64,000 nt of DNA from a virus (IMGVR_UViG_3300027898_000001), one strand, 5' to 3'; counted from the first letter of the stretch, positions 19,587 through 63,034 are shown. Translations and numbers: made by a program. Notes: a model not told the origin generated them from the sequence alone.

Positions 19587-19707
19587 TTGAAACCGTCAGC
19601 AAAACATGATATAATGAGTTGTGAAAGAAATATCTATCCTGTCTGCACTTTGTAGGTATAGCTCATAGTTAATATTGAAATGTTTGTAAACTTTAGGAGT
19701 ATCAAAT
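19587..19707 (+). promoter_or_regulatory. repeat cassette copy 1: sigma70-type promoter + hairpin + RBS (no ORF follows)
   Basis: TTGAAA-N17-TATAAT(19610), TG extended -10, hairpin 19616-19664, TGTTTGTAAAC, AGGAG. Confidence 0.8.
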
Positions 19708-19829
19708 CTAGTGATGTAGATATTCAAGCTTACCAACTTTATTAAACCTTTTTCTGTTAGAGTGTTCTAATAAAACGAGTATTTATGATATCGGATAGAT
19801 TTAATTTAAAAGTGTAAACATTACAATAT

Positions 19830-19926
19830 GAAGTTGAGACTGAATGGTTACCGAACGGGGATGAAGCCTAGCGGGTCGACAGTTAAACATCCTGTTATGT
19901 ACTGGAGGTTACGCAGTCTCAGCTTC
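19830..19926 (+). ncRNA. candidate 97-nt small RNA
   Basis: 13-bp terminal stem GAAGTTGAGACTG/CAGTCTCAGCTTC with one G.U, inner helix AACGGGGATG/CATCCTGTT; TGTAAACA box ends 10 nt upstream. Confidence 0.55.
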
Positions 19927-20060
19927 CTCTGTTTCATCTAATCTAGTTGCGGCATTAAACTACCACGGCCTGCTCTTTTATTTAAGGTAATCATTATGTA
20001 TAACATGAATCCTGCACAACTATTACTCCTTCGATGTAGTACAATCATTGGAGAATTGTT

Positions 20061-20240
20061 ATGTCAAAGAAGTATTGTTTCAAATTCCTGCGAGTTGGTC
20101 CAGGCGGTATGAAATGTAACTGCTGCGCACCTGCTCCAGGGAAACGCAAAGAAATGTTCCGCAGTGCTAAGCGCCAGTTAGATCGTGCGTTGATGCGTGT
20201 GGAAAAGCAAGAACTCGAGGCTATTCGTAAAGAAAGCTAA
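20061..20240 (+). CDS. 59-aa Cys-containing small protein
   Basis: Below track cutoff; GGAG RBS; VGPGGMKCNCCAP. Confidence 0.65.
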   Translation: MSKKYCFKFLRVGPGGMKCNCCAPAPGKRKEMFRSAKRQLDRALMRVEKQELEAIRKES

Positions 20241-20243
20241 AAG

Positions 20244-20251
20244 TGTAAATA
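20244..20251 (+). promoter_or_regulatory. TGTAAATA box (tRNA)
   Basis: AAGTGTAAATA, 33 nt before the tRNA. Confidence 0.7.
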
Positions 20252-20283
20252 AGTGTTGACAGATAACTACTGTCCCTTACAAC

Positions 20284-20360
20284 GGGCCTATAGCTCAGTT
20301 GGTCAGAGCGTTCGGCTCATAACCGAAATGTCCGCAGTTCAAGTCTGCGTGGGCCCACCA
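20284..20360 (+). tRNA. tRNA with CAT anticodon, probably tRNA-Ile2 (lysidine type); Met not excluded
   Basis: Cloverleaf: GGGCCTA/TGGGCCC acceptor, TTCGG-CTCATAA-CCGAA anticodon arm, GTTCAA T loop, encoded CCA; C4:G69 and C5:G68 pairs. Confidence 0.92.
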
Positions 20361-20525
20361 ACATAACCCAACTAATGTTATTCGTAAGGAATCTTTTAAT
20401 CATGTTAATAAAAACAAGAACTGTGTTAAAAACGAATGGAAAAAACGTACAAGTCATTACAGTAAAACGTAAGACGATAGTTGCACCTACACAACACCTA
20501 GCTTTCGCTAAAGTCGCGTGATATA

Positions 20526-20558
20526 AAAATGCCTCCCTCGTGGAGGCATTTTGCTTTT
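20526..20558 (+). terminator. intrinsic terminator
   Basis: AAAATGCCTCC-CTCGT-GGAGGCATTTT followed by T-rich run. Confidence 0.75.
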
Positions 20559-20568
20559 GGAGACAAAA

Positions 20569-20946
20569 ATGTTTGTACCGATTTTTATATTTTTCAGTGA
20601 AGTCGTCGATTCACTTATCTACGTAGATACACTGGACACTGCACACCGTTGCGATTCAACTATGTTGCAACAAATATCGCATATTATGGACAACTACCTA
20701 AATGCAGTAGTATATCTACTGCCTGTGAAGGCACCACTCAAACCTGCTATCCAAGACATTCAAACACGCCACAAAGCATGGTCCGTTGAAGTGTTTGTAC
20801 ACAAATCACAATATAGCACAATAACTAAAAGCAGCCCGTTTTTACCTAATATGATCCAAGATTGTATTGATACTCGTGCTAGATTAAATCTTAGCTCTAT
20901 TCGCAATAGACTTGAAACTACTATGGAGACTGAAAATGAATATTGA
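20569..20946 (+). CDS. hypothetical protein
   Basis: GGAG RBS, ATG 20569. Confidence 0.65.
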   Translation: MFVPIFIFFSEVVDSLIYVDTLDTAHRCDSTMLQQISHIMDNYLNAVVYLLPVKAPLKPAIQDIQTRHKAWSVEVFVHKSQYSTITKSSPFLPNMIQDCIDTRARLNLSSIRNRLETTMETENEY

Positions 20947-21382
20947 TTTAACTATTACTGCAACAGCGCAAGAACCTGCCTATGTTATCAGTGGTTTTCC
21001 TGGTATAGGTAAATCACACTTTCAAAGCACTAGAGAGCGTGTATCTGATTCTGATAGTAGCAAATTCCCGAAAGACAATTTCCCTGCAAACTATATCGAA
21101 CATATCAAGGTCGCTATTAATGATAATGCGTTTGTTATGGTGTCTTCTCACGATGTTGTCCGTCAGGCTTTGGTTGATAACAATATTCCCTACATGTTAG
21201 TATATCCTGCGAAAGAATTAAAAGCAGAGTATATGCAACGATACACAGAGCGAGGTTCGCCGCAACCATTCTTAGACTTAATGGATAAAAACTGGGATTC
21301 GTTTGTTGATGGTTGTAAGTCACAAGATGGTTGTACGCACATTGAATTACAGGCTGGGCAATACCTGTCGGATGTGGTGTAA
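20936..21382 (+). CDS. small P-loop NTPase (nucleotide-kinase-like)
   Basis: VISGFPGIGKS Walker A; YxxRG lid-like motif. Confidence 0.7.
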   Translation: MNIDLTITATAQEPAYVISGFPGIGKSHFQSTRERVSDSDSSKFPKDNFPANYIEHIKVAINDNAFVMVSSHDVVRQALVDNNIPYMLVYPAKELKAEYMQRYTERGSPQPFLDLMDKNWDSFVDGCKSQDGCTHIELQAGQYLSDVV

Positions 21383-21386
21383 TGTT

Positions 21387-21710
21387 ATGACTGCAAAATA
21401 TAAAGCATTACATGACGTACTGTATTCAAGATTCCTTAATCTTCGTATGCACTTTGTTATACCCGGTTTTCGTGAAAAAATGTTGCGCGAGCATTCTTTA
21501 CCTGAGGCCTTACAGTTTATATTGTTTGATTGTTGTGTCTACGTGTTACCTGCAGAAAATTTAACAGGATATAATTCTGTTTATATAACGCAAGGTGATT
21601 TTATTGCCTGGTTATTTATAGATAAAAATCATTATATCCTAGATACTTATTCAGAATTACCTTTTAAAATATTAGCAAATATTCTAATTGAGTTGGATAC
21701 ACGTATATGA
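21387..21710 (+). CDS. hypothetical protein
   Basis: Start moved to MTAKYK. Confidence 0.65.
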   Translation: MTAKYKALHDVLYSRFLNLRMHFVIPGFREKMLREHSLPEALQFILFDCCVYVLPAENLTGYNSVYITQGDFIAWLFIDKNHYILDTYSELPFKILANILIELDTRI

Positions 21711-22181
21711 AAACTATTTATTTCAACAAGTTCTCCGAAAATAGATTATCCTAAAATCGAAAATGTCCAATTACATTTAGATGATCCTGATAAAAATACG
21801 GATGCTGCGCATGTGAAAGATGGTCGTATTGTATTTTTATGCAGAGCTGACATTGAAAATTCTATAGCAACACAAACTTTTGTTTGGTCTGATAAAAGTT
21901 TCGTGCGTGGGTATGCTAGAAAATTTATGCACTATGTATTGAAAGAAATTGGTATCATCCGCACATCTAAGACACAGCGTCCACTTGGCATTGAAATGTG
22001 GAAGAAGTTTATTGTTGAATGTTTGCATAGTTCTAATTATGTTTATTGGGGCAATGATTTTTCGTCTTTACACCAAATATCTAGGGTTACTGAATTGGAT
22101 AAACATTATTCTGATATTTGGGGCAATTCTTCCGAGCATGGAATGCAACATAAACATGTTTCAACCAAACCATTAATGTAA
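21711..22181 (+). CDS. hypothetical protein; 5' end frameshifted or reached by readthrough
   Basis: Frame open from 21711; nearest coupled ATG (21707) is one base out of frame. Confidence 0.55.
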   Translation, partial: KLFISTSSPKIDYPKIENVQLHLDDPDKNTDAAHVKDGRIVFLCRADIENSIATQTFVWSDKSFVRGYARKFMHYVLKEIGIIRTSKTQRPLGIEMWKKFIVECLHSSNYVYWGNDFSSLHQISRVTELDKHYSDIWGNSSEHGMQHKHVSTKPLM

Positions 22182-22184
22182 ATA
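22177..22184 (+). promoter_or_regulatory. TGTAAATA box (topoisomerase)
   Basis: 34 nt before the start. Confidence 0.65.
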
Positions 22185-22217
22185 TACAAAAACATTTCTC
22201 TATTAGGAAAGTTAAGT

Positions 22218-24221
22218 ATGAGTGAAAAGAAAAAGAAAAGTGCCAGCCAAGATGGTTTTCAGGTATTAGAAAATCTTGATGGTATAAAAGCCAACCCGTC
22301 TATGTACTTGGGTAATCTAGGCGAGGACATGGCCTACCGCTGCGTTAAGGAGCCTGTCGACAACGCTTACGATGAAGCCGTTGCAGGTAGAAACAAGCTA
22401 ATCGAAGTGTGTTTAAACTACGATACTGACTATATAACTGTAGCAGATGGTGCCGGAGGTGTGCCGACCGAATTAAAGACACTAAAATCCGGCGAGAAGA
22501 TTAGTATTCTAACGGCAGCGTTTACTCGTGTTCACGCTGGCGGTAAATTTAATGCTACATCGTACAAAACATCTGCAGGAACCCATGGCGTAGGTGTTGC
22601 TGCTGTAAATGCTGTGTCAGAAGAAATGCGAGTATGGTCAAACTATAGAAATAAGCTAGTACATCAGGCGTATCTAGGTGGAGACATATCAACAAAAGGT
22701 CCGCATCCAGTACAAGTTAAATCTGTGGATAAAGACGTTGCCGTAATGCTTCGAGATAAGCCTACAGATTACGGTACTATTGTCACAATAAAACTCAATC
22801 AGTCCATAGTATCAGAAAATGCCCGTCGTGGTAAAGCACTGCCTAAGAATTTCGTTAAAGCCGAACCAAATGCAAAACAAATTGCATCTTGGCTTAAGAA
22901 CATGGCTTACTTGAATCCAGGTTTAGAGATTCGATTCTCGTTTATCCGTAAAGGTAAGCGTAAAGACCTCACGTTTATCAATAAGAAAGATTTAGCGTGG
23001 ATACCAAAACAAATGTGCGAAGTCCATGAGCTATCTGCTATGGGCAAACCGCTTGTGTTTAAGAACGATAACATTAGTTGTGCTATTGTGTGGGCAGATC
23101 ATCCAGACACGGATAACTTCTTAACATTCGTAAACACATCACCAACTGTTGATGGTGGTTGGCACGTTACAGGCTTTATGACTGCACTTGGCCAGGCGAT
23201 CAAACCATTCTTACCTGTATCTAAGGGCAAGAAAAAGAAAGATGCAGGCTTTTCAAACAGTGACTTGTTAATTGGCCTTACTGGTATGTTTGACTGGCGT
23301 ATGCACGGTGCGGCGTACACGAGCCAAGTTAAAGATAAGCTAGCCAGTAAAGTTGACCGTGAAGTACATGAAATCATGCTGCCTGTATTTGAGAGCTATT
23401 TCAAAGCAAACAGTAAAGTCGCTAAAGCGATTATCAAACGCGCACAGACCATGACTAAAGGTCGTGAAGAATTAGCGGCAGTTGTTAAGAGTATGGCGGA
23501 TGTTAAGAAAAAGAAAAAAGGTAATACACTACCCTCTTGTTTAGCTGCTAGTCCAAAAGCTAAATCAAGTGAGCGTGAGCTTTACGTTGTTGAAGGTGAT
23601 TCTGCGGCTAAAACTGCTATTGATGCTCGTAATGGTATGTATCAAGAAGTATTAGGTGCAGGAGGTAAACCTCTTAACGCACTAAAAGCCACTTTAGCTA
23701 AGGTGTTAGCACATGAAGAAATTCAAAACATGCTTATCTGTTTGGGTGCTGATATTAAGACTCTTGATCCTAAAGCAGAAAACCCCACACTGTCTGTTGA
23801 TAAGTTACGTGCTGCACATCTGATATTCTTAGTTGATCCTGATCCTGATGGTTATCACATTGCAGTGTTGTTCCTAGCAGCTATTTACCGTTTGATGCCA
23901 GACTTACTGCGTCAAGGTCGCGTGTGGTGTGTTCGAGCTCCACTGTATGCAGTTGTTTATAAAGGTAAGTTGTATGGTGGTGAGACATTCCAAGAAGCTC
24001 GCGCAACTGCGCCTAAAGAAGTGAAAGACAAAGACATTATACGCATTAAAGGTTGGGGGGAGGTTGATGAGACTGTTCTCGAACCTATTGCATTCGATCC
24101 TAAGATTCGTAATCTAATTCGTATCAACCCTTTTGAAAGTGCTGAGCAAGCGAAATTCTTTAGAGGTGTGGTTGGTGAAGATGCTGTGTACCGTCGTCAG
24201 TTGTTAGGGTTGGAGAACTAA
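22218..24221 (+). CDS. type IIA DNA topoisomerase subunit B (GyrB/ParE-like)
   Basis: GHKL motifs EPVDNAYDE, DGAGG, HAGGKF, GTHGVG; TOPRIM EGDSA and DPDPDG; IKGWGE. Confidence 0.93.
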   Translation: MSEKKKKSASQDGFQVLENLDGIKANPSMYLGNLGEDMAYRCVKEPVDNAYDEAVAGRNKLIEVCLNYDTDYITVADGAGGVPTELKTLKSGEKISILTAAFTRVHAGGKFNATSYKTSAGTHGVGVAAVNAVSEEMRVWSNYRNKLVHQAYLGGDISTKGPHPVQVKSVDKDVAVMLRDKPTDYGTIVTIKLNQSIVSENARRGKALPKNFVKAEPNAKQIASWLKNMAYLNPGLEIRFSFIRKGKRKDLTFINKKDLAWIPKQMCEVHELSAMGKPLVFKNDNISCAIVWADHPDTDNFLTFVNTSPTVDGGWHVTGFMTALGQAIKPFLPVSKGKKKKDAGFSNSDLLIGLTGMFDWRMHGAAYTSQVKDKLASKVDREVHEIMLPVFESYFKANSKVAKAIIKRAQTMTKGREELAAVVKSMADVKKKKKGNTLPSCLAASPKAKSSERELYVVEGDSAAKTAIDARNGMYQEVLGAGGKPLNALKATLAKVLAHEEIQNMLICLGADIKTLDPKAENPTLSVDKLRAAHLIFLVDPDPDGYHIAVLFLAAIYRLMPDLLRQGRVWCVRAPLYAVVYKGKLYGGETFQEARATAPKEVKDKDIIRIKGWGEVDETVLEPIAFDPKIRNLIRINPFESAEQAKFFRGVVGEDAVYRRQLLGLEN

Positions 24222-24222
24222 G

Positions 24223-25845
24223 ATGAAGAAGTCTAAGAAAAACACTCGTGATATAAAGGGCGTTGATGTTAGTGGTACAAACGTGAGCAAAAAGACGATC
24301 GCACCAACTGCTGAATTGTTGGATGTAGATGCTCCAGTTAAGTTTCTGCCAATGTTGAATCAACCTGAATCTAATGTTATCAATATGGGTATGGCGGATT
24401 TTACTGAAGATGCACTACGTAGGTACGGTAGTTATGTTGTTGAAGAACGTGCTATTCCTGATTTTCGAGATGGTCTAAAACCGTCACATAGAGCTGTGTT
24501 GTGGTCATTGTGTGGTTTAGGTTTACGGCCAAGCAGCTCGTATAAGAAATCAGCACGTACAGTAGGTGATGCTATTGGTAAATATCATCCACACGGAGAT
24601 GCTGCTACTTATGGTGCTATGGTTACTATCGCTAACACGATGCCTCCAGTTGTTGACGGTCAAGGTAACTGGGGCACACCTATAAATATGGCAGCAGCTT
24701 ATAGATATACTGAAGCAAAGATAAGTAAGTTTGCACATTTGTTTATGGCAGACACTAAGTATCTTGAAGTAATACCAAAAGTACCAAACTTCTCTGGTGA
24801 TGATGTTATTCCTCTGTACATGCCTGCCCTGCTGCCTTACATACTGTTCATAGGTAACGTACCAGCACCAGCTTATGGTGTACGTGCTGGTAATCCTAGC
24901 TTCTCATTCAAGAGTGTTGCTAAAGTCGTTATTGAAATGTTGAAAGGTGTTGAGTATAATCATAAAAAGTTAGCCAAGCAATTAAAGATTCAACATGCGT
25001 TTGGTTGTGATGATGCTACCGATGATGATGCGTTCTTAGAAATGATTAGCACAGGTAAGGGTAATATTACCTACATGCCAAAAGCTGATTACGATTTTGA
25101 TAAGCGTGTTATTCGTATTCAATCGTTTACACCTGGATCATTATCTTCAGTTAAGAACATAGATAACACCCTTGCCAAGATAAGTAACATTGAAGGTGTT
25201 AGGGAAGCATACTCCGCACAAGGTAAAAAATCTGTTGGTAGCGGACCGTACGGTGCACTATTCAATATTGAATTGCAGAAATCTTTATCGGATGACCGCT
25301 TTGATTCTATTTGTGAGAAAGTTGACCACATTATTACATCATCGGTTAACTATCGTCTTGGTATCACAATTCGTAAGTCGGACGAAACTAACAAATTCAA
25401 GTATGTGAATTACTTGTCATTACTACAGGCGTGGATTAAATATCGTATTGCGCTTGAAGTGAAAATGATTAAGCACTTGAAAATGAAGGCTGAGCGCGAC
25501 CTGCATATCAATGAGGTGTACTTGTTTGCTATTGAAAACATGGACAAAATTCTCAAGATATTACCTAAGGTTCTTGTTGCCAAAGAGCCTGATGTTACAT
25601 TAGCAAGTGCGTTGAAGATGCCTGTAGAAGATGCGACAATTATATTGGATCGTAAAGTTCGACAGTTGGCTAAGTTGGAAGCAGGTGCTATCAAAGAAAA
25701 GGTCCGTGCGTTGAAAGCCGAGATTATGCAGCTATCTAAAGACCTGAAAGACCCTGGTGGTCGTGCCGCACGTGATACAGAAGAACGTGTTGCCACTTAT
25801 TTGAAATCACCCGATTCTCCACAGTCTGGTCTAAAATTCGAGTAA
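24223..25845 (+). CDS. type IIA DNA topoisomerase subunit A (GyrA/ParC-like, no C-terminal pinwheel)
   Basis: RAIPDFRDGLKP, KKSARTVGD, YHPHGD, DGQGNWG, catalytic AAYRYTE. Confidence 0.93.
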   Translation: MKKSKKNTRDIKGVDVSGTNVSKKTIAPTAELLDVDAPVKFLPMLNQPESNVINMGMADFTEDALRRYGSYVVEERAIPDFRDGLKPSHRAVLWSLCGLGLRPSSSYKKSARTVGDAIGKYHPHGDAATYGAMVTIANTMPPVVDGQGNWGTPINMAAAYRYTEAKISKFAHLFMADTKYLEVIPKVPNFSGDDVIPLYMPALLPYILFIGNVPAPAYGVRAGNPSFSFKSVAKVVIEMLKGVEYNHKKLAKQLKIQHAFGCDDATDDDAFLEMISTGKGNITYMPKADYDFDKRVIRIQSFTPGSLSSVKNIDNTLAKISNIEGVREAYSAQGKKSVGSGPYGALFNIELQKSLSDDRFDSICEKVDHIITSSVNYRLGITIRKSDETNKFKYVNYLSLLQAWIKYRIALEVKMIKHLKMKAERDLHINEVYLFAIENMDKILKILPKVLVAKEPDVTLASALKMPVEDATIILDRKVRQLAKLEAGAIKEKVRALKAEIMQLSKDLKDPGGRAARDTEERVATYLKSPDSPQSGLKFE

Positions 25846-25850
25846 ATATT

Positions 25851-26276
25851 ATGAAAGTATACATACCAGCAAACTCTGAACATTTCAATTACGATGTAAC
25901 ATCTTTAACTTGTAGTCTGAAGACAGAATCGGGATTCACTTTAAGTGGTAGTGCGTTAACCTATGCTCAGCAATGTATAGCCGATATAGCACCTGACACA
26001 TCTTGTGATTTTTCTATAACTTCTTTTCGTATTGTTGGTATGGATCAGAACTGCGAACGCGGGTTATATGTTGAGTACGACATTACTGTCACTACAGATG
26101 TTCAATTTGTAGCATACAAGACCTCGCACAGTCGCCAGAAACTTTATGTTATGGACTTAGAGCGAGAATTAATTACAACTGAACCTGAAAGTGCCATTAA
26201 ATATTCAATAGATGAAGCACTCGAATTGAAAGACCGCAATTATTATATAGAAGTCTTTGCTGGGTACCGTGTATGA
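25851..26276 (+). CDS. hypothetical protein
   Basis: Operon packing. Confidence 0.7.
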   Translation: MKVYIPANSEHFNYDVTSLTCSLKTESGFTLSGSALTYAQQCIADIAPDTSCDFSITSFRIVGMDQNCERGLYVEYDITVTTDVQFVAYKTSHSRQKLYVMDLERELITTEPESAIKYSIDEALELKDRNYYIEVFAGYRV

Positions 26277-26578
26277 AGCACATAAAAGCCTTTGCGGATA
26301 TTGTTGGTGATGAGGACGAAGTCAAACGGTTCATAGAAGACCATGACCTTGAAATATTCTTGATTAGCGTTATGAACAAAATATTGCGAGAGCCGACCGT
26401 TGTGTCATTGACGCTTGAACTATTTGAAATGGATGACAATTCCAATCGCCTATATTTACTAGGCGATTGTACTTTGGAAGATGCTTCTGATATTGTAGAT
26501 TTGGAAGAGCGTATCTTCCAAGAAGTGTTTGTAACAGACAGTAGCTATGATGGAAAGGTTGTATTCTCATTGGACTAA
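26273..26578 (+). CDS. hypothetical protein
   Basis: Start/stop overlap with upstream gene. Confidence 0.7.
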   Translation: MKHIKAFADIVGDEDEVKRFIEDHDLEIFLISVMNKILREPTVVSLTLELFEMDDNSNRLYLLGDCTLEDASDIVDLEERIFQEVFVTDSSYDGKVVFSLD

Positions 26579-26582
26579 TATC

Positions 26583-26912
26583 ATGCAAGAAAAATTGAAT
26601 GAGTTGATTGCTAAAATAAGTAGTTTGAATAATAAAGAATTTTACGAACAGTTTGTTCTTGAAACCTTTCGACAAGACCAATTCCGAAACAACCTCTCAC
26701 TGCTGGCAGTAGGTGATTACTGTGAAGACATTATCAAAGATTTCCAATGCTTCAATGCAGAAGAAAATGCTGGCGACTACTTGGGTGATATTTACGGGCA
26801 CCCAGTAGTACGTCTTCACAGTTATCCAAAGAACTGCTTTATGTTTGTAGCATACAATATCAACATGCGTATAATTAGTAGTTTAACATATTACGATACT
26901 ACAAAGGTGTAA
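26583..26912 (+). CDS. hypothetical protein
   Basis: Start MQEKLN. Confidence 0.65.
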   Translation: MQEKLNELIAKISSLNNKEFYEQFVLETFRQDQFRNNLSLLAVGDYCEDIIKDFQCFNAEENAGDYLGDIYGHPVVRLHSYPKNCFMFVAYNINMRIISSLTYYDTTKV

Positions 26913-26913
26913 C

Positions 26914-27273
26914 ATGATTCCTATAAGTTTAGCTGAATTGACCAGATTAAAAGGATTGATACCAGCTTTCGATCCATCTGCTGATGTAACATTCGATCTT
27001 AATACAATCGCCTATATACGCGCAAGTGTTATACGGTCAACACATGTAGAAGTAGCTATGATTATCGGTTCAAAAGATATTCTTACTGAGAAGATATTGT
27101 TACTATTCGATCCTATAAATAATATTGAACTTGTACAAGCAGGTCTCCTTGGATCCATTTTAGCCATGCACGTTATTGTAGATTCAACTTGGCATGCAAA
27201 TACAATGATGATTATGGCCTACAACAATCGTAGTTCGGACGTAATCGCTAAATCTGTTTATTTGGTTGAATAG
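26914..27273 (+). CDS. hypothetical protein
   Basis: Operon packing. Confidence 0.65.
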   Translation: MIPISLAELTRLKGLIPAFDPSADVTFDLNTIAYIRASVIRSTHVEVAMIIGSKDILTEKILLLFDPINNIELVQAGLLGSILAMHVIVDSTWHANTMMIMAYNNRSSDVIAKSVYLVE

Positions 27274-27282
27274 GGGCATTAT

Positions 27283-27804: not shown

Positions 27805-28124
27805 CTAACGATATTAAACCTCGTTTTGCACCTAGAGACATTGTGAAAGAGTCTGCGGAGATTAGTTCGATACTATCTACTTTATATAAAGGTACTCGTG
27901 TAGAGCTATTTGAATATCTACCTAGACCAAATTGTCCTAGATGCCACGCACCTGTTACCAACTTCATCATAATAGTAGAAGATACAACATACAAGATGGA
28001 AGCAGAGTGTTTAGAAAAAGAAAAGAAGTATGCTTGCAGTTATGAATTCTATCGCGTCAATAGAGATGATTTTGATTTAACCAAAGTTGTTGGACTTGCA
28101 CCAGAATACGATCACTACAAATAA
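27801..28124 (+). CDS. hypothetical protein with CxxC
   Basis: ATGA overlap; CPRCH. Confidence 0.7.
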   Translation: MTNDIKPRFAPRDIVKESAEISSILSTLYKGTRVELFEYLPRPNCPRCHAPVTNFIIIVEDTTYKMEAECLEKEKKYACSYEFYRVNRDDFDLTKVVGLAPEYDHYK

Positions 28125-28126
28125 TA

Positions 28127-52830: not shown

Positions 52831-55749
52831 GTGGCTAAACTAGCAAAATCTGCCAAACTTAAAAATGCTGATGCGTCTGAATTAGCTGCGTTTGATCCAT
52901 ACGCGCATTTAGACAAATCAATCGACTCGATGGAAAAACAGTTTGAACTGAGTGCTATGTCGTTTGATAAGAACGAACCTAGATTCAGTACAGGCTTACT
53001 ATCACTAAACATTATGCTGGCCAATGGCCTTCTTGGTGGTGGTTGGTATACCTGCTTCGGTGGTGAACAGTCGTGTAAGTGCCTTGTTGGTGATAGCTTA
53101 GTTGTAACAGATAGTGGTTTGTTGCGACTAGATGAAATATATTTGGAATCATCTAAATCTACGTTAGAAGGTTTCAACGATATTACACCTATTACTGTCG
53201 AATCTCATAAAGGTAAACGACAAGCTACTAAAGTTTACATAGGTAAAGGTTCTACATATCGTATCAAGACAAAACTAGGTGATGTTGTAGAAGGTTTGCC
53301 GGATCACAAGTTATGGAGTCTTGTTGACGGTAAATTTACGTGGACACGTTTAGATAAGCTAAAACAAGGTGCTTATGTTCCAAAGAAAATAGGTACTAAT
53401 ATATATGCCAAAGAGTCTGCAAAGTTTAATTTTAAACCAGATCTTGACTATATGTTTAAAATGACTGATAGTTTACGCGGTCTTGGTGATGTACATTATC
53501 CTAGTGAGATTTCAGAAAATCTCGCTGAAATTTTTGGCTGGTTAGTGTCAGAAGGTTCTCCGGATAACAGATTTCATAACAAGAATCCTTATGCACTTAA
53601 TCGCTTTAATAAACTCGTAAAACGTGTGTTTGGACAACCTTGCAAAACGCTTACAGATAATTATGCAATAGCACATGGCTTAGTATTAAGATTTTTTAGT
53701 GAGTATCTTGGTAATGTAACATCTGCTGAGCGATTTACTCCTGTAAGTGTACGCTGTTCTCCTAAGAATATACAAACAGCTTACCTGCGTTCGTTATTTG
53801 AAGGTGATGGTGCCGCTATTAATTCAAAGAACGGTACAGTTACTCTTACAACGCTTAGTAGAAAACTTGCGGAAGAAACTAAGTACATGCTAGAAAACAT
53901 GGGCATGCTTTGTTATATTAGAGAACGCACGACGTGGGCTACTAATGGTAGTGAATCTCAGATTGAAAAAGAAGCCTATGTTTTATCTGTACATCCAGAT
54001 TTCGCACATGTGTTTGAATCTGAAGTTGGTTTTTTATCCAATAGAAAGAATGAAATATTACGAACACTTATTGAACGCAGCTTAAATAGTAAATCTGTAA
54101 ACTCTCGTGTTGGTCCTACGAACACGTTACCGGGCGCGGAGCTTGCGGTACATTTAATAAATATTGTGAATCGTATAAGTCCAAATCTTGGAATATCCTG
54201 CAGCAGTAGTGGTCAGAGTTCTGTATTCTCCAATATTTCAACAAAAGACTTGCGTAGTGGTAAATCAGGATTAACAAGATGTACACTATCTCGTATTTTA
54301 AATTGTATTGTCGAATATAAGTTAGAAGATTCTCTACCAGACGAAGGTAAAGAATTAATTAAAACTTTGAAACACTACACAAACTATTATTGGACAACTG
54401 TAGACTACTCTAAACGTACTAGACTTAAAAAACTTGTGTACGATCTAAATGTAGAAGATACGCACTCCTATCATGTTAATGGTATGATTAGCCACAACTC
54501 CACCCTGGCAATGACCATTCTAAGTAGTATCATGTTGCAGAAAGATTTTCGTGGCAAGGCTGCGTATTTCGACTACGAAGGTAGTTCGCAGGCAGAGTAC
54601 ATTGAAAACATCATGCGTAGTATGGGCATCAAAGACAACATTGAAAGTGTGTTTGGTGTACAAGATGAAGAAACAGGTGATTGGATTGTTAAACCACGTG
54701 TACGTTATTACACTCCAGATACTGGTGAGAAGTTCTTCCACTACTTAGCCAAGTTAGAAAAACTATTACCGGATAAAGTCAAGAAAGGCGGACAGTGGTA
54801 TTTCGTGTATGAAAATAACCGCGACAATCAGAAAGCCCTTAAAGGCCGTTATGATAAAGCGTTATTTAGTAAGTACAACCAATTCTACATTCCTGCTCCT
54901 GACGGCACCATTCAAGCCATCATACTGACAGACTCTTATCCAGCAATGTTACCCGATAGTGCAGATAAGAAAGAAGAAGGTGATAAAGGCTTGGCTTTGC
55001 AAGCGCGTATGTTTGCTGATGGTTTGAAACGTGTTAAGAGTGCTATGCGTAGAAAGCGTATTGTAGTTCTAGGCGTTAACCAACTACGTAAAGTACCGAT
55101 GGCAATGTATGGACCTTCTGAGACTGAGCCATGCGGCGATGCTTTGAAGTACTTCAGCGATGTTCGTTTCCGCAATAGTTCTGTTTCTATTCCACACGGC
55201 AAAGGCATGTTGGAAGAAGAAGATAGTGTTATTGGTGACGGTGTTGATACGTACCGCTATATCAAAATTCGTACACACAAAAACAAACTCGGTGGTGTGC
55301 CAAACCAAGAAGTTACTTTACGTATTGTAGTAGAGAACGCTAATGGTACGGCTACTGGTTTCTGTCGTGTTTGGGATGCGTACACCTATTTGAAGCTAAC
55401 GGGTCAGATTGGTGGTCAGCGCAACAAGATTAAATTCTTGGAAGGCTTTAATGTCGTCAAGAAAGATCCAAAGACACAGATCAGCAAAGAAGTTTACGTG
55501 GACTTTAAAAATCCATTTGCTGGAACAGTTGTTAATTGGTTAGATTTTAAAACTCTGATTGAAGGACACAAGGATGATATTAAAGCACTATGTAAAAAAC
55601 TGAAAATGTCTAAGCCTGTCATGTTGCGCAGTTTCTTGGAAAATCAATGCTCTGATGGTTTGGGCTTCACTTACATGAAAGATGCAAAACGTGCCAAATC
55701 TGCGGAGAAAAGATCGGCAGATAAGTCTGATGCAGATGATGAAGAATAG
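52831..55749 (+). CDS. recA: RecA/UvsX-like recombinase with intein (499 aa spliced)
   Basis: FSTGLLSLNIMLANG, split P-loop GGEQSCK|ST, YFDYEGS, TDSYPAM, VNQLR, GDALKYFSDVR, KNKLG. Confidence 0.85.
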   Translation: MAKLAKSAKLKNADASELAAFDPYAHLDKSIDSMEKQFELSAMSFDKNEPRFSTGLLSLNIMLANGLLGGGWYTCFGGEQSCKCLVGDSLVVTDSGLLRLDEIYLESSKSTLEGFNDITPITVESHKGKRQATKVYIGKGSTYRIKTKLGDVVEGLPDHKLWSLVDGKFTWTRLDKLKQGAYVPKKIGTNIYAKESAKFNFKPDLDYMFKMTDSLRGLGDVHYPSEISENLAEIFGWLVSEGSPDNRFHNKNPYALNRFNKLVKRVFGQPCKTLTDNYAIAHGLVLRFFSEYLGNVTSAERFTPVSVRCSPKNIQTAYLRSLFEGDGAAINSKNGTVTLTTLSRKLAEETKYMLENMGMLCYIRERTTWATNGSESQIEKEAYVLSVHPDFAHVFESEVGFLSNRKNEILRTLIERSLNSKSVNSRVGPTNTLPGAELAVHLINIVNRISPNLGISCSSSGQSSVFSNISTKDLRSGKSGLTRCTLSRILNCIVEYKLEDSLPDEGKELIKTLKHYTNYYWTTVDYSKRTRLKKLVYDLNVEDTHSYHVNGMISHNSTLAMTILSSIMLQKDFRGKAAYFDYEGSSQAEYIENIMRSMGIKDNIESVFGVQDEETGDWIVKPRVRYYTPDTGEKFFHYLAKLEKLLPDKVKKGGQWYFVYENNRDNQKALKGRYDKALFSKYNQFYIPAPDGTIQAIILTDSYPAMLPDSADKKEEGDKGLALQARMFADGLKRVKSAMRRKRIVVLGVNQLRKVPMAMYGPSETEPCGDALKYFSDVRFRNSSVSIPHGKGMLEEEDSVIGDGVDTYRYIKIRTHKNKLGGVPNQEVTLRIVVENANGTATGFCRVWDAYTYLKLTGQIGGQRNKIKFLEGFNVVKKDPKTQISKEVYVDFKNPFAGTVVNWLDFKTLIEGHKDDIKALCKKLKMSKPVMLRSFLENQCSDGLGFTYMKDAKRAKSAEKRSADKSDADDEE
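53080..54498 (+). mobile_element. intein (473 aa) with LAGLIDADG homing endonuclease, in the P-loop
   Basis: Cys1 CLVGDSLV, C-terminal ISHN, +1 Ser; IFGWLVSEG and YLRSLFEGDG motifs. Confidence 0.92.
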
Positions 55750-55756: not shown

Positions 55757-55786
55757 AACGCTCCTTTTTAGGGGCGTTTTTTTTTT
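55757..55786 (+). terminator. intrinsic terminator
   Basis: AACGCTCCT-TTTT-AGGGGCGTT followed by a long T run. Confidence 0.85.
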
Positions 55787-55788
55787 AT

Positions 55789-55924
55789 TTGCACTTGTTT
55801 TGAAAATGTGATATAATGAGTTGTGAAAGAAATATCTATCCTGTCTGCACTTTGTAGGTATATCACATAGGCAAGATTGAAATGTTTGTAAATTCCACTA
55901 AATATCACTTTCGAGGTTTATATG
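55789..55924 (+). promoter_or_regulatory. repeat cassette copy 5
   Basis: TTGCAC-N17-TATAAT(55812); 54 bp identical to copy 1; GAGG RBS, ATG 55922. Confidence 0.85.
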
Positions 55925-56336: not shown

Positions 56337-56356
56337 GGAGTAGCAATTGCTACTCC
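56337..56356. other. perfect 20-bp palindrome (terminator-like or operator)
   Basis: GGAGTAGCAATTGCTACTCC. Confidence 0.6.
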
Positions 56357-56405
56357 AACTAAATGTCATTAAATGTTCCACTAAATTTCACTAAAGGTAA
56401 ATATC

Positions 56406-58199
56406 ATGCAACAATTAGCTATCACTGCACCACAATACCCATTATCACACACTGTATTCCAAGCCCTGCACTACTCTGATGTTTATACAAGCGCAGATAT
56501 GTTATTAGATTATCTCCTTGCGCATAACATTGATACTATGTTCGGTGTTCCAGGTGGTGCTATCGAACCTCTGTTGAATGCTGTATCTCGCAATCAAAAA
56601 GCATTTGGTCCTATCCGTTCCGTTATTGCTCGCCACGAAACTGGTGCAGCATTCATGGCAGATGGTTACTATCGTGAAACCCGCAAACTCGCAGTTGTGT
56701 TCAGCACTACTGGTCCAGGTACTACCAATTTAATTACTGGTGTTGCAAGCGCGTATTCTGATAATATTCCAATGCTTATCATCACTGCACAAACCCCATT
56801 ACCAAAATTCGGCCGTCGTGCTTTACAAGAAAGTAGTTGTACTTCTGTAGACACTGTGGCAATGTTCCAAAGTATTACACATTACAACACTTTGGTTTCA
56901 CATGCAGACCAACTTGAACACAAACTACGTGCGGCATTGTTAGCTGCTTATCAAAATAAAGGTCCAGTACACTTGAGTATTCCAAGTGATGTGCTTCGCC
57001 AAGATACCTGCAAACACGCTATCAAACGTGTCACGAACAATCACGACCATTTTGTTGATACGGATGCACTAAAAGAATTGTTAAATATCTTAGAGCAAGA
57101 TAGCTCTATTGCTGTGATTGTAGGTGAAGGTTGCCACGAAGCTAGTCAAGAGATTATGGAGTTTTTGAATTTAACAGATTTACCTTTTATGTCTACACCA
57201 ATAGGTAAATCGTTTGTTGATGAAACACATAAGAATTATTTAGGTGTTTACGGATTTGCTGGACACGCTTCTGCTAAACAATTACTCCAATCTACTCGCG
57301 TTGTTACAGTTATCGCAATTGGTTGCACTTTAGATGAGTTGAGTACGTCTGGTTGGAGTCCTGATTTGTTGAACTACAAATTGGTCCACATTGATAGTTG
57401 TGCAGAACATTTCACACGCTCTGGTATGGCTAAGTTGCAAGTGTACGGCAATATCAAGTACGTGTTTGAGTGTATGAATACTGAGGTTGAAAATCTTATC
57501 GGTGCGGAATTAGCGTGGAGCAATGTTTCAGATAAGACTCAATTAAATGCTTGCGGTGGTTATGCTGAATTGAAAAACTCCAAAGCCTGCACATTACCAA
57601 GTAGCACTATAAAGCCGCAGTATCTTATGCACCGCCTCAGTCACAATCTAGTAGACGATGCTCGTATATTTGTAGATGCTGGTAATAGTTGGGCATGGGC
57701 CACGCACTATCTAACACGCAAGAACAGTGATGGTAAGTATCACATTGCAATGGGCTTCGGCAGTATGGCATGGTCAGTTGGTGCTGCTATAGGTAGCGCG
57801 TTCGCTACAAATGAACCTACTGTTTGTATAGTTGGTGATGGTTCATTCTTAATGTCCTCGCATGAGATAACTGTAGCTGTCCAGCATAATCTTCCCATTG
57901 TGTTTTTAGTTCTGAATGACAGTGCTATGGGTATGGTGATGCACGGACAAAAGCTTGGAGGACAAGAAAGCATCGGCTGGGAATTGAATGTTGTCGATTT
58001 CGCTGCAATAGCAAAAGCAAGTGGGGCGTACGGTACAATTGTACGAACAACAAAAGAATTAGATGCTATCGACCTTAATGTTTTGTTTCTGCGCAACGGT
58101 CCTACATTGATTGATGTGCGCATTGATCGCAATGAAGTACCACCAATGGGTGATCGTATTAAAGGTTTGGCACAACAATCAGCAACTCCAGGAGGTTAA
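56406..58199 (+). CDS. thiamine diphosphate-dependent enzyme, acetolactate synthase large subunit-like
   Basis: FGVPGG, RHETGAAFMADGY (catalytic Glu), TTGPGTTN, ThDP motif GDGSF...LND. Confidence 0.9.
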   Translation: MQQLAITAPQYPLSHTVFQALHYSDVYTSADMLLDYLLAHNIDTMFGVPGGAIEPLLNAVSRNQKAFGPIRSVIARHETGAAFMADGYYRETRKLAVVFSTTGPGTTNLITGVASAYSDNIPMLIITAQTPLPKFGRRALQESSCTSVDTVAMFQSITHYNTLVSHADQLEHKLRAALLAAYQNKGPVHLSIPSDVLRQDTCKHAIKRVTNNHDHFVDTDALKELLNILEQDSSIAVIVGEGCHEASQEIMEFLNLTDLPFMSTPIGKSFVDETHKNYLGVYGFAGHASAKQLLQSTRVVTVIAIGCTLDELSTSGWSPDLLNYKLVHIDSCAEHFTRSGMAKLQVYGNIKYVFECMNTEVENLIGAELAWSNVSDKTQLNACGGYAELKNSKACTLPSSTIKPQYLMHRLSHNLVDDARIFVDAGNSWAWATHYLTRKNSDGKYHIAMGFGSMAWSVGAAIGSAFATNEPTVCIVGDGSFLMSSHEITVAVQHNLPIVFLVLNDSAMGMVMHGQKLGGQESIGWELNVVDFAAIAKASGAYGTIVRTTKELDAIDLNVLFLRNGPTLIDVRIDRNEVPPMGDRIKGLAQQSATPGG

Positions 58200-60253: not shown

Positions 60254-60282
60254 TTGTTTAGAAAAGGGTTAGCTATGTCCGC

Positions 60283-60654
60283 TTGTGTGCGTTTTATATG
60301 TGGTCCCGCAGTGCTCTCCTCCGTAACTATAGGTGGTCTCCACACGTTATTGAGCACTGTGTTCAAAGATACAGTATATTCTCTATTGCACATGATTTTG
60401 CAGAAAATCTAGTACGCCATACAGATTGTGTATTGCATACTTCTACTGTGCGTTTGCTGTATGATTCTATTATAGATTTTATACATGGACTCATATTAAG
60501 TGTTTTGCAATACGCGACTCCGTCCAGTATATTACCTGTATTGGAACAAATAACGAAACTTCCTGCACCAACAGAATTGTTTTATTTTGTTGAAGCCTTG
60601 GAATTATGTGTTGAAATGAACATTCCATTAATTTTATCATCTGGAAGTATATAA
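60283..60654 (+). CDS. hypothetical protein
   Basis: Start uncertain. Confidence 0.5.
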   Translation: MCAFYMWSRSALLRNYRWSPHVIEHCVQRYSIFSIAHDFAENLVRHTDCVLHTSTVRLLYDSIIDFIHGLILSVLQYATPSSILPVLEQITKLPAPTELFYFVEALELCVEMNIPLILSSGSI

Positions 60655-61305
60655 ATGAAACAGAAGTTTTTAAATTGGTTTTTAAAGCACGTCATTGCTT
60701 ATGTTAAACCTAAATACACCGATATTATGCTAGACATTGAAACTATAGGTACTCGTCCTGGTGATTCAGTGCTTGCAATAGGTGCAGTTGGTTTCGCACG
60801 ACCTCCACAAAAATTTGCAAAGCGAATGTGGGTACGTTTAGTAGATTGGTTGAAACTACCTTATCCGCATTTAACTAAACCATTCTATGTTACTATCAAT
60901 CGTAGTAGTAACGTCTTCCACGGACTAAATGAGGACGAGGAAACTATAACGTGGTGGACAACTAAACCAGAAGAAGCTCGCGTTATATTTGATTTTGCCG
61001 AACGTGATGGTACTACTTTGCCTTTAGCGCTAATAGCGTTTAGAGATTACTTCAATGAGTTCCCAAAAGGTTCTAAACTATGGGGATGTGGTTCTGAGTT
61101 TGATGTGCCTATATTGCGACACGCTTATTATCATTGTAGTATGGAAGAACCGTGGAAGTTCTTTAACCTAGCTTGTTACCGCACATTGAAAGGTTTCTAT
61201 CCTTCTCGTAAAATAATTCGTGAAGGCATTTACCACAACGCTCTTGATGATGCAAAGAATCAAGCAGTTCACGCTATTTGGCTTCTAAACAAATTGGGGT
61301 TATAG
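60655..61305 (+). CDS. DEDDh 3'-5' exonuclease (Rv2179c-like)
   Basis: MLDIETIG, WGCGSEFD, HNALDDA. Confidence 0.85.
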   Translation: MKQKFLNWFLKHVIAYVKPKYTDIMLDIETIGTRPGDSVLAIGAVGFARPPQKFAKRMWVRLVDWLKLPYPHLTKPFYVTINRSSNVFHGLNEDEETITWWTTKPEEARVIFDFAERDGTTLPLALIAFRDYFNEFPKGSKLWGCGSEFDVPILRHAYYHCSMEEPWKFFNLACYRTLKGFYPSRKIIREGIYHNALDDAKNQAVHAIWLLNKLGL

Positions 61306-61308
61306 ATT

Positions 61309-61980
61309 ATGTCTGCTCTTATAGCATACACACCGTCTACTGGACCCGCAATCATAACTTTAGTTTCAGACGAGGATCTAAGAAGGTTGATAGAGTACAA
61401 ACTTCCATTTGTTTCTAAGTGGCCTAAAACTTTAAACATGTTTTTAGGTAGCAATGGGAATGAACTTGGAATGTCAAATCGTATGATTGCCGAGTTCCAT
61501 TATTTCCTATTGCATCTAATGAGTATACTGTCAAGTGAACTGCACAAAGTGCCGCAGATTCATCCAACCGATGAAGTGTATTTGTTGAACACTGTAACCA
61601 TATTATTTCACATTGTAACAACTGCGCATTTAAGTGGCGACAAAATAAGTATTGTAGGTGTGGAAGATATTGTCATATCAGATTCATTAGATATGAAAGG
61701 TGATTATGTTGGTCGCGCCTTTGTGTCGGATGTATTTACGAAATCTGGTGATACACCTATCTATATGTCTGGATGCAAGATGACGTACGGTGTAGGTCAT
61801 TTTCTTGATACTGTCGAAGTCATGCGCAATAATGAATGTGTGTATCAGGGACCAATACTTAAATTGGTACGATTTAAAGATGATATAACTGAGGTAAAAG
61901 CGAGTATGGAATTCGGTATTAATATTGATTTTCCTACAGAAGAAGGTGATGTAATATTTTTTAAAACGCAAGAAATTTAA
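61309..61980 (+). CDS. hypothetical protein
   Basis: Operon packing. Confidence 0.7.
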   Translation: MSALIAYTPSTGPAIITLVSDEDLRRLIEYKLPFVSKWPKTLNMFLGSNGNELGMSNRMIAEFHYFLLHLMSILSSELHKVPQIHPTDEVYLLNTVTILFHIVTTAHLSGDKISIVGVEDIVISDSLDMKGDYVGRAFVSDVFTKSGDTPIYMSGCKMTYGVGHFLDTVEVMRNNECVYQGPILKLVRFKDDITEVKASMEFGINIDFPTEEGDVIFFKTQEI

Positions 61981-62017
61981 TTCCTGATTTTTCACATAAA
62001 GTTCAATAGGTAATGGT

Positions 62018-62107
62018 ATGGCGGATAATGAAGAAGATTTTGAAGATTCTAATGAGATAGATTCGGAAGATTACGATGACGAAGATATTGATGAGGAGCA
62101 ATTATAA
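62018..62107 (+). CDS. 29-aa highly acidic peptide
   Basis: MADNEEDFEDSNEIDSEDYDDEDIDEEQL; TAATG overlap with next gene. Confidence 0.5.
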   Translation: MADNEEDFEDSNEIDSEDYDDEDIDEEQL

Positions 62108-62916
62108 TGCAACTCACTTCTGATAACGTAGTTAGTGTATTTGAAGAATGTCTTACGCAAATGGACGGCGTTGCATACATTGATGCCAAAGCCCTTCGTT
62201 TAGACGTAAAGTTTAATTCATTAAAGTTAGAGCTGCACCGTAAAGATATTATTACAATGCTTGCAGAATTACCGCAAGATTTCTGTAGTACCTCTAAAAC
62301 ACAAGGTGCCTCATTTTTAAATATGTGTATGCGCGACGATGACGTCCAATGGACAGGCACACATGCTATAATGGATATGCTTACCGCGCTTGGTCTCGCT
62401 GCAGGTTATGTTAGTTTTATTTTGCCGAGAGAAATGTGGAAGGTACTACCTGGTGGTATGCCTTACATTAGAATTGATTGTCCTACACTTAACTTAGAGA
62501 AAATTGCTATGCCAAAAGATACTGCTATAACTTTTGAAGACGAACATCCTAATCAGTTTGAGGGTCAGGATATGGAAATAGATACGGACGATGTTGCCGA
62601 AGCTGTAGAGAGTGCTATGCGCGATCAATTTCCTGATGAACCTCTCGATGATGACGAAGATGATTATGGTTACGAGGATGAAGATAATGAAAGTGACTTA
62701 AATCCAAAGCAACCACCTGCATTCATTACAGTCGATGGTGTAACGTACGGCGATACTACCGCACTCGCGGACCATACATTTGATAAAGATGTATTGGCAC
62801 TTGCAATAGCGTCGGCACCACGTTACGTATCAAACGAAACTGGTGAGCTTGTTCCTGAAAAAGAAGGTGAGTCGGATAACGGTGCACCTGATACGGAATT
62901 TAGCTTGCCTGCATAG
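62107..62916 (+). CDS. conserved phage hypothetical protein with acidic C-terminal region
   Basis: GASFLNMC..WTG..LPGGMPY block. Confidence 0.8.
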   Translation: MQLTSDNVVSVFEECLTQMDGVAYIDAKALRLDVKFNSLKLELHRKDIITMLAELPQDFCSTSKTQGASFLNMCMRDDDVQWTGTHAIMDMLTALGLAAGYVSFILPREMWKVLPGGMPYIRIDCPTLNLEKIAMPKDTAITFEDEHPNQFEGQDMEIDTDDVAEAVESAMRDQFPDEPLDDDEDDYGYEDEDNESDLNPKQPPAFITVDGVTYGDTTALADHTFDKDVLALAIASAPRYVSNETGELVPEKEGESDNGAPDTEFSLPA

Positions 62917-62917
62917 T

Positions 62918-63034
62918 TTGCATCCTGTTTTAAAATATGATATAATGAGCTATACCTATAAAGAATATCCTGTCTGCACTTTATAGGTATAGCTCATAAT
63001 CAATATTGAAATGTTTGTAAACTTTTGGAGGAGG
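62918..63034 (+). promoter_or_regulatory. repeat cassette copy 6
   Basis: TTGCAT-N17-TATAAT(62941); perfect 17-bp stem 62947-62963/62979-62995; GGAGGAGG. Confidence 0.85.

Follow-up and report, generated by a model that had tools for sequence, protein, structure and literature searches.

Six promoter-hairpin-leader cassettes in a giant phage related to PaBG: candidate counterparts of the PeSL elements of T4-like phages

Why should a unit of about 120 bases, consisting of a host-type promoter, an RNA hairpin, a conserved leader and a ribosome site, recur six times within one region of a phage genome, mostly ahead of runs of small unknown genes? The stretch analysed here (the window) is 64 kb, with 38.7% GC, from IMGVR_UViG_3300027898_000001, an uncultured freshwater giant phage of ~260 kb (260,268 bp). 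It encodes topoisomerase II subunits, an intein-bearing UvsX/RecA, a sigma factor, a single-stranded DNA-binding protein (SSB) and many small proteins of unknown function. Its nearest described relatives are Pseudomonas phage PaBG (Baikalvirus; topoisomerase II 68% identical in amino acids), Lu11, Motura and AD1, and its gene order is that of PaBG over 10-27.8 kb and 42-55.7 kb. The answer we prefer, with modest confidence, is that the units are early-expression cassettes like the PeSLs (early promoter plus stem-loop) of T4-like phages, in a variant found outside that group, and that they likely serve as patches of homology for exchange.

The pattern TGATATAATGA-N60/61-AAATGTTTGTAAA has exactly six matches in the window, all on the plus strand (19607, 28196, 32568, 37882, 55809 and 62938), and the same two blocks, searched as TGATATAATGA-N55-65-AAATGTTTGTAAA, gave no match in 100 shuffles. 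A covariance model built on the family (R1) and run on the window with filters off scores the same six copies at 114-140 bits, the best other plus-strand match reaching 16 bits (E=3). The six positions given in a preliminary description, made by a model from the DNA alone, are confirmed by both searches, and the covariance-model check that it proposed recovers, within the window, only the copies already known. The cassettes are the sole dispersed non-coding repeat family of the window; the remaining repeat families are acidic coding repeats. The copies, with the genes behind them (the cargo), are as follows.

Copy 1 (class II), 19587-19707, plus strand: -35 box TTGAAA 19587-19592, TG 19607-8, TATAAT 19610-19615, weak hairpin 19614-19666, block AAATGTTTGTAAA 19678-19690, AGGAG 19695-19699.
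Copy 2 (class I), 28171-28300, plus strand: without a clear -35; TATAAT 28199-28204, hairpin 28203-28256, block 28268-28280, AGGAG 28285-28289, ATG 28298; cargo of ~9-10 small genes, 28298-32545.
Copy 3 (class I), 32543-32670, plus strand: TATAAT 32571-32576, hairpin 32577-32625, block 32639-32651, AGGAG 32656-32660, ATG 32668; cargo of ~13 small genes, as far as 37858.
Copy 4 (class II), 37862-37985, plus strand: -35 box TTGCAT 37862-37867, TATAAT 37885-37890, alternative hairpin 37900-37939, block 37953-37965, AGGAG 37970-37974, ATG 37983; cargo of a 403-aa ORFan and a 448-aa acidic protein, weakly gp131-like.
Copy 5 (class II), 55789-55924, plus strand, immediately 3' of UvsX and its terminator: -35 box TTGCAC 55789-55794, TATAAT 55812-55817, hairpin 55823-55866, block 55880-55892, divergent tail with TTCCACTAAATATCACT, Shine-Dalgarno sequence GAGG, ATG 55922; cargo of 11 genes, to 62916.
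Copy 6 (class I), 62918-63058, plus strand: -35 box TTGCAT 62918-62923, TATAAT 62941-62946, hairpin 62945-62997, block 63009-63021, GGAGGAGG 63026-63033, ATG 63056.
Intrinsic terminator, 28127-28149 (stem 28127-28143), plus strand: GGGAGC-ACTAG-GCTCCC and a T run, closing the topoisomerase block ahead of copy 2.
Intrinsic terminator, 55757-55788 (55757-55778 in the scan), plus strand: 9-bp stem and T10, between UvsX and copy 5.

The promoter described for these units is borne out, its quality being judged on sequence only: a perfect extended -10 (TGnTATAAT) is present in all six copies, and a -35 box of the form TTGnnn stands at 17-nt spacing in four (copies 1, 4, 5 and 6). Sites of a general sigma70-like form are not enriched in the window (46 where shuffles give 66, and 44 where they give 56). 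The units are intergenic, extending from stop codon to start codon. A stop codon lies 1-5 nt ahead of the -35 region in copies 1, 3, 4 and 6, copy 3 directly abutting that of the upstream gene (32543-32545), and in copies 2-5 a Shine-Dalgarno sequence (SD) is followed by the ATG. Immediately upstream of the SD is the 13-nt block AAATGTTTGTAAA, invariant in all six copies, whose distance from the -10 is held at 60-61 nt despite internal insertions and deletions. Canonical terminators precede copies 2 and 5, as had been reported. In copies 2 and 4 an ATG within the invariant block (28270, 37955) opens a short upstream frame, without an SD, that overlaps the real start. The 13-nt block was itself considered as a phage promoter of the TGTAAATA type described below and rejected, as it reads TGTAAAC and lies too near the SD; a second, tandem promoter made of a -35-like box in the loop and CATAAT was rejected likewise, its key bases being kept in only four of the six copies.

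The hairpin is strongest in class I. In copy 6 the stem is perfect over 19 bp (-27.5 kcal/mol), rather than over the 17 bp previously given, and takes in the final AT of the -10. The stem of copy 3 numbers 17 bp, two of them G.U (-24.7 kcal/mol), and that of copy 2 numbers 17 pairs, two of them U.G, and is interrupted by one mismatch and one bulge (-17.8 kcal/mol). These three fold better than their shuffles (z of -2.1, -4.2 and -3.7 for copies 2, 3 and 6). When the transcript is begun 6 nt past the -10, they retain a stem of 10-12 bp flush with the predicted 5' end (-9.7 to -13.4 kcal/mol, z about -3). With the register of copy 2 corrected, compensatory changes occur at four stem positions among copies 2, 3 and 6; three pairs changed on both sides, a count reached in 7 of 500 shuffles, and the covariation score was reached in one of 500. 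Across the six copies there are 14 G.U cells to 3 A.C cells, a bias which, together with the compensatory pairs, points to plus-strand RNA as the form that acts. The claim of covarying stems therefore stands for copies 2, 3 and 6 and fails for copies 1, 4 and 5, which have lost the long stem: in their 5' arm five bases stand in place of ten, and the loop is longer by five inserted bases, so that the length stays the same. From their predicted start these three copies form a different 8-bp helix, AUAUCUAU/GUAGGUAU (z from 0 to -1.9), which uses the same invariant 3' arm as the long stem.

The loop of the hairpin is 15 nt long. Its motif ATCCTGT is found in all six copies while the stems vary, and copies 4 and 6 have it a second time in their -35 spacer, 45 bp away from the one in the loop; over the window as a whole it is not enriched (11 against 7.3 expected). 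Pairing of the loop AUCCU with the SD was rejected, since it would amount to only 4-5 bp. No U-run follows the stem (copy 3 has UUUU) and the terminator scan calls none of the six hairpins. With this lack of a U-run, and with separate terminators before copies 2 and 5, a terminator function of the PeSL type appears doubtful from the sequence. A search of the window with Rfam returned a tRNA-Met only, and no family matching the cassette.

That parts of the cassettes have been shuffled, as the preliminary description held, is upheld by the shared runs: copies 1 and 5 have 54 identical bp in common, copies 4 and 6 have 32, and the tails of copies 2 and 4 differ by a single mismatch, with a longest identical run of 31 bp. 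The copies group differently from segment to segment: 4 with 6 in the -35 region, 1, 4 and 5 against 3 and 6 in the 5' arm, 2 with 3 in the loop, 2 with 4 in the tail, and 1 and 2 against 3 and 4 in the SD. Of 435 informative site pairs 218 are incompatible, a permutation test like that of the pairwise homoplasy index (PHI) gives p=0.004, and the minimum count Rm is at least nine exchanges. Exchange between cassette copies is thus supported by the mosaic pattern of the alignment. Two tail-only pieces, which resemble the "half PeSLs" of T4-like phages (PMC4122927), lie nearby.

Possible tail-only fragment, 29276-29311, plus strand: TAATCCA...TAAACTTTAGGAGTA, with a 15-mer identical to copies 1 and 2; it overlaps the end of the open reading frame (ORF) 28947-29306, precedes the ATG at 29316 and is weak in nhmmer (E=0.5).
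Second tail of the copy 5 type, 56361-56405, plus strand: AAATGT...TTCCACTAAATTTCAC...AGG, with 34 of 46 aligned positions identical; it precedes the gene for a thiamine diphosphate (ThDP) enzyme.

Around the second of these, TTCCACTAAAT(A/T)TCACT precedes both a 133-aa gene and the ThDP enzyme gene (55893-55909 and 56376-56392), and a perfect 20-bp palindrome, GGAGTAGCAATTGCTACTCC, lies between the two sites at 56337-56356; repeats and palindrome may be the operator and terminator of a small unit that regulates itself.

A second class of promoter separates the cassette-headed blocks from the rest of the window. The motif TGTAAATA is enriched (17 sites against 6.5 expected), and its sites stand 25-60 nt upstream of gene starts, in gene orientation and mostly in the form aaaaCTGTAAATA, before conserved genes that include those of replication. 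The same motif is annotated "putative middle/late promoter" in the GenBank record of Lu11, and PaBG spacers carry CTGTAAAC in place of aaaaCTGTAAATA. Of the ten plus-strand TGTAAATA sites in 20-64 kb, one falls in a cassette-headed block, and that one inside an ORF (binomial p ~0.02). Members of the PaBG/Lu11 group encode their own sigma factor (PMC7412058), and that of the window likely reads the TGTAAATA promoters of the blocks without cassettes. With the genes so divided between promoter classes, the cassettes are best read as early promoters for host sigma70 and the blocks behind them as an early regulon.

Sites of the form aaaaCTGTAAATA, plus strand, for example: 11274, 20244, 22177, 40685, 43433, 44647, 45295, 49826/49835 and 51498.
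Sites of the form aaaaCTGTAAATA, minus strand, for example: 8846, 11241, 14735 and 17547.
Phage sigma factor, 50487-51506, plus strand: 48% identical to PaBG gp118, annotated as sigma-70 family.
Perfect 14-bp hairpin, 40669-40709, plus strand: arms CTACCTACA/TGTAGGTAG resembling the cassette stem, -25.4 kcal/mol; a TGTAAATA box lies in its loop, so that the promoter is inside the hairpin, and it closes the copy 4 block.

PaBG has an analogous family of its own, unannotated and ~137 bp long, which was first read from the spacers of its early region. A sequence model of this family (R2) finds nine copies in PaBG (NC_022096), three in a metagenomic relative, L034, and one cut copy in another, L033:

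PaBG cassettes in NC_022096, minus strand: 4372-4508, 12705-12841, 20543-20679, 81265-81360, 95653-95748, 98362-98500, 102065-102201, 108768-108901 and 255057-255190.
Cassettes in L034: 6444-6577, 13403-13539 and 17105-17243.

Each PaBG copy comprises an extended -10, a short hairpin and a conserved leader with SD, aTAGTGGTTACggaCTTAGtTGAGGT, which runs into the ATG; the hairpins differ in sequence from copy to copy (mean z of -1.1 over 12). In seven of the nine, a 25-bp inverted repeat surrounds the unit, and its left arm, ACCTgAGCTAaAAACATAACCaCTA, is complementary to the leader. The duplex of this outer repeat has z of -1.7 to -7.6, and 95.6% of its cells pair, with three compensatory pairs, figures that lean high as the columns were picked for pairing. 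The SD lies within the right arm, so the ribosome site could be masked in read-through RNA but would stay free in RNA begun at the promoter. The two families share the phage group, the strand logic, the extended -10, the promoter-proximal hairpin and a conserved leader ending in an SD, and the leaders themselves show some resemblance (TGGTTACGGACTTAGTTGAGG against TGTTTGTAAACTTTAGGAG). They differ in that most PaBG units have the outer 25-bp repeat and an inner hairpin of just 5-12 bp, whereas those of the window have a long inner hairpin and no outer repeat; outer complementarity like that of PaBG was not found in five of the six window copies. The R2 model returns nothing from the window (E<=10) or from Lu11, and R1 returns nothing from the whole of PaBG. 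That the window cassettes are simply of the PaBG type was therefore rejected, there being neither an R2 match nor an outer inverted repeat. L034 and PaBG are 93% identical and collinear over ~17 kb; their sole difference there is a gene replacement (L034 6887-7981 against PaBG L021 17010-17838), one gene downstream of a PaBG-type cassette.

The places that cassettes occupy correspond in the two phages. One PaBG cassette comes directly after UvsX, the same backbone junction as copy 5; another precedes gp131, and a weak, acidic gp131 counterpart follows the ORFan behind copy 4; further PaBG cassettes are in the post-topoisomerase region, as are copies 2-4. The cargo behind them is not fixed. The 14-kb segment with copies 2-4 and the post-UvsX segment with copies 5 and 6 are both ORFan-rich and nearly without PaBG homologues, the cassette blocks holding 3-4 such homologues among ~40 genes, all of them located elsewhere in PaBG, while the flanking backbone is syntenic. 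Three cargo genes have identifiable counterparts: window 31497-32231 matches PaBG gp020 (E 3e-14), 36489-37235 matches gp016 (E 9e-10) and 59924-60253 matches gp036 (E 4e-20), and gp020, gp016 and gp036 all lie within different cassette-headed blocks of PaBG. These three genes, and the post-UvsX junction with its unrelated cargo, speak against the fixed cargo order that the preliminary description named as a ground for refutation. The comparison supports relocation of cargo between lineages, with cassette junctions recurring. New here are the nine-copy PaBG family, the post-UvsX PaBG cassette and the three cargo homologues in different PaBG blocks.

Copies 2-6 had been said to head runs of small genes, and about 40 genes, mostly of unknown function, do lie behind them, with the correction that the SD of copy 6 first meets a two-codon mini-ORF (TTG ACG TAA, 63042-63050). 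Pfam matches among the cargo are limited to a HEAT-repeat protein, a PC4-like domain, a ThDP enzyme and an Rv2179c-like exoribonuclease, and PHROGs recognised none of the eight cargo proteins tested. None of this points to the host-takeover or anti-defence role proposed in the preliminary description. The gene at 31497-32231, homologous to PaBG gp020, encodes the protein with the PC4-type domain, which binds single-stranded DNA; 56406-58199 encodes a full-length ThDP-dependent (acetolactate synthase-like) enzyme, and 60655-61305 the Rv2179c-like 3'-5' exoribonuclease. There are no paralogues among the cargo genes, which indicates that the cassettes spread without their genes; spread by gene duplication was rejected on this ground. 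Copy 1 is "empty": its SD is followed by GTG ATG TAG (19712-19720) and then by ~350 nt without an ORF. The ORF-free 19700-20060 holds aaaagTGTAAACA (19813) and a 13-bp closing stem, AAGUUGAGACUGA/GCAGUCUCAGCUU (~19830-19926); a structured RNA at this place was rejected, with an overall z of +0.3. Beyond it come a 59-aa ORF and then the tRNA-Met (20284-20360). On its other side copy 1 is adjoined by 2 kb with few ORFs (17.5-19.6 kb) and by the point at which the coding strand switches.

Two features of the conserved backbone may be added. A 7-kb block at 10175-17085 (a Cas4-like nuclease, a primase, a RuvC-like resolvase and others) is inverted with respect to PaBG, relative to the topoisomerase genes. 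The intein of the UvsX/RecA at 52831-55749 has a LAGLIDADG domain, and a homologue of PaBG gp120 at 48146-49822 likewise has an intein splicing domain.

How do these cassettes compare with known systems? A PeSL is a composite of an upstream stop codon, a sigma70-type promoter, a stem-loop at or after the -10, an SD and an ATG (PMC2839356). PeSLs are known in the T4-like phages RB49/phi1, T4/PST and KVP40/nt-1 (Arbiol 2010, PMC2839356; Comeau 2014, PMC4122927), where their stem-loops are sorted by position into five subclasses, among them one that overlaps the -10 and one just downstream of it, and where recombination between copies has produced insertions and deletions between close relatives as well as mini-circles. 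The analogy drawn in the preliminary description is supported in part by that definition: the window units have the composite build, with a sigma70-type early promoter, a stem-loop at or just after the -10 that is strong in copies 2, 3 and 6 and reduced to the rearranged 8-bp helix in copies 1, 4 and 5, and an SD, and they occur as many direct copies in variable, ORFan-rich regions, with a lineage-specific consensus and with degraded half copies nearby. The differences are also several. The window phage is not T4-like, belonging instead to the PaBG/Lu11 group; its stem is long and AT-rich, has a 15-nt loop, lies in the transcribed leader and lacks both a GGGG...CCCC core and a U-run, separate terminators standing before two copies; its copies are thinly spread (six in 43 kb) and stand before operons of 2-13 genes; and they carry the extra invariant 13-nt block in the leader. 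The literature that we searched describes PeSL-type cassettes for T4-like phages only. To our knowledge, units of the PeSL type are the only documented case in virulent phages of regulatory elements that are at the same time drivers of modular gene shuffling.

Other parallels concern parts of the arrangement. The gene 10 leader of phage T7 has a 5' stem-loop that acts as a stabiliser and the translational enhancer UUAACUUUA. Behind the T7 phi10 promoter the order is the same as here, namely promoter, 5'-flush hairpin, AU-rich stretch (...TGTTTAACTTTAAGAAGGAG) and SD, the hairpin being followed by TTTGTTTAACTTTAAGAAGGAG. The T7 unit differs in being read by the phage's own polymerase, in its single copy and in having no link with gene shuffling, and its similarity to the window leader is short and, in DNA so rich in AT, may be a chance match. 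Putative mobile promoters (Nijveen et al. 2012, PMC3575422) and Correia elements are likewise short repeats that place a promoter before unrelated genes, and the Correia elements of Neisseria have terminal inverted repeats of ~25 bp, as has the PaBG form. The window copies have neither terminal repeats nor target duplication, and homologous recombination within a single phage genome would account for their spread more simply than a mobile element.

If the cassettes are indeed PeSL-like, host RNA polymerase with sigma70 would initiate at the near-consensus extended -10 promoter, and the predicted start, inside or at the foot of the hairpin, would give the mRNAs of copies 2, 3 and 6 a 5'-flush stem-loop of 10-12 bp, while RNA reading through from an upstream block would form the full hairpin of 17-19 bp. 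The AU-rich conserved leader, AAAUGUUUGUAAACUUUAGGAG, would give a strong ribosome site to any gene that follows. The hairpin would most likely work in plus-strand RNA, as a 5' stabiliser and/or as a processing or insulating signal between blocks. As direct repeats of ~100 bp in a phage that itself encodes UvsX and RuvC-type recombination proteins, the cassettes would exchange parts with one another and probably act as linkers where blocks of early genes can be acquired, dropped or relocated, a role demonstrated for the PeSLs of T4-like phages. We infer, then, the start site, the role of the hairpin, and recombination at cassettes as the cause of the differences in cargo.

Several observations weigh against this reading. 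Start site and 5' hairpin alike are predicted features. Copies 1, 4 and 5 fold no better than shuffles (z of +0.6 to +0.9), so the hairpin is either dispensable or replaceable. Conservation of the loop and of the 13-nt block among six related, recombining sequences may reflect recent common descent and not selection. The cargo has the GC content and the GC content at third codon positions (GC3) of the backbone; a foreign composition, as from recent import, was looked for on both measures and not found. A protein search with topoisomerase II returned no relative above 69% amino acid identity, a close relative being absent from every collection searched, so that no breakpoint can be assigned to a cassette. 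Since the window and PaBG families have no detectable homology in either direction, the parallel could be convergence. Contigs of three freshwater metagenome runs, one of them the probable source of the phage DNA, over 19000-38999 showed no joints, deletions or circles at cassettes. Among the loose contig ends there, those at 19607 and 37862 are copies 5 and 6, and those at 28398 and 32538, considered as cargo swaps, are diverged versions of the same genes. Viral contigs gave no match to the element, megablast of 6.6 kb against phage records gave none, and searches with cargo proteins found no relatives; 20 single matches in metagenome contigs and eight in genome contigs were judged to be chance, by inspection and by the covariance model.

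The most serious competitor to PeSL-like cassettes, though in our judgement an unlikely one, is a set of ordinary paralogous early promoters with a common 5' untranslated region, kept similar and mosaic by gene conversion, in which the hairpin is a passenger and no genes are moved. Loss of the long stem in three of the six copies fits this explanation, as do uniform composition, metagenome contigs free of joints, and the small number of copies (six), each heading a long multi-gene operon and not a single ORFan. It leaves the three or four compensatory stem changes and the G.U bias without a reason, and likewise the recurrence of a promoter-proximal hairpin, in unrelated sequences, in nine PaBG cassettes; the presence of cassettes with different cargo at the same backbone junctions and the tail-only fragments at 29276 and 56361 also speak against it. 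The unit might instead be a cis-acting RNA control element, its hairpin loop core AUCCUGU and the 13-nt block being bound by a phage or host factor that acts on all early operons, either making polymerase resistant to termination (nut/put-like) or shutting off early translation (a RegA-like operator beside the SD). Invariance of ATCCTGT in six of six copies despite varying stems, of AAATGTTTGTAAA in six of six directly upstream of the SD, and of the 60-61 nt from -10 to block despite indels is what such an element would produce, and the G.U bias indicates RNA. We nevertheless consider it improbable: no candidate binding protein was identified, ATCCTGT shows no overall enrichment, no Rfam family matches, the PaBG cassettes lack this loop and this block, and the invariance possibly reflects recent ancestry.

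Least probable of all, and by our estimate very unlikely, is an element acting as DNA: either the inverted repeat serves a phage repressor of early transcription as operator or cruciform, or the whole unit is a promoter-bearing mobile element resembling a miniature inverted-repeat transposable element (MITE). The repeat does overlap the -10 and the start site, copies 4 and 6 do have the second ATCCTGT in the -35 spacer, 45 bp from the first, and the 25-bp terminal inverted repeats of the PaBG type flank the promoter in the manner of Correia-type elements. The arms covary, however, rather than keeping their sequence, and their mismatches are of the G.U type on the plus strand only, which fits RNA and not a double-stranded operator; the window cassettes lack terminal inverted repeats, no target duplications were seen, no transposase is evident, and all copies stand in one orientation exactly between stop and start codon. 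A broader version of the PeSL-like reading is also conceivable, though we put it forward only tentatively: giant phages of the PaBG group may share a hitherto undescribed system in which early promoters read by the host are built into conserved hairpins or inverted repeats, the RNA fold differing between promoter-initiated and read-through transcripts and so setting block expression, with the units doubling as portable linkers for recombination that move blocks of early genes along the conserved backbone. In PaBG the repeat that encloses the promoter would hide the SD on read-through RNA; in the window phage the corresponding part would be played by the long hairpin at the 5' end.

Occurrence of the same logic, built from different parts, in a giant-phage lineage unrelated to the T4-like phages suggests that plugs of "promoter plus hairpin plus leader" are a general device by which accessory early genes are expressed and exchanged. 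The parallel family is open to bench work, as PaBG grows on Pseudomonas aeruginosa PAO1. For the window phage, the cassettes would mark the early regulon, here about 40 unknown genes, and that is the usual site of host-takeover and counter-defence functions.

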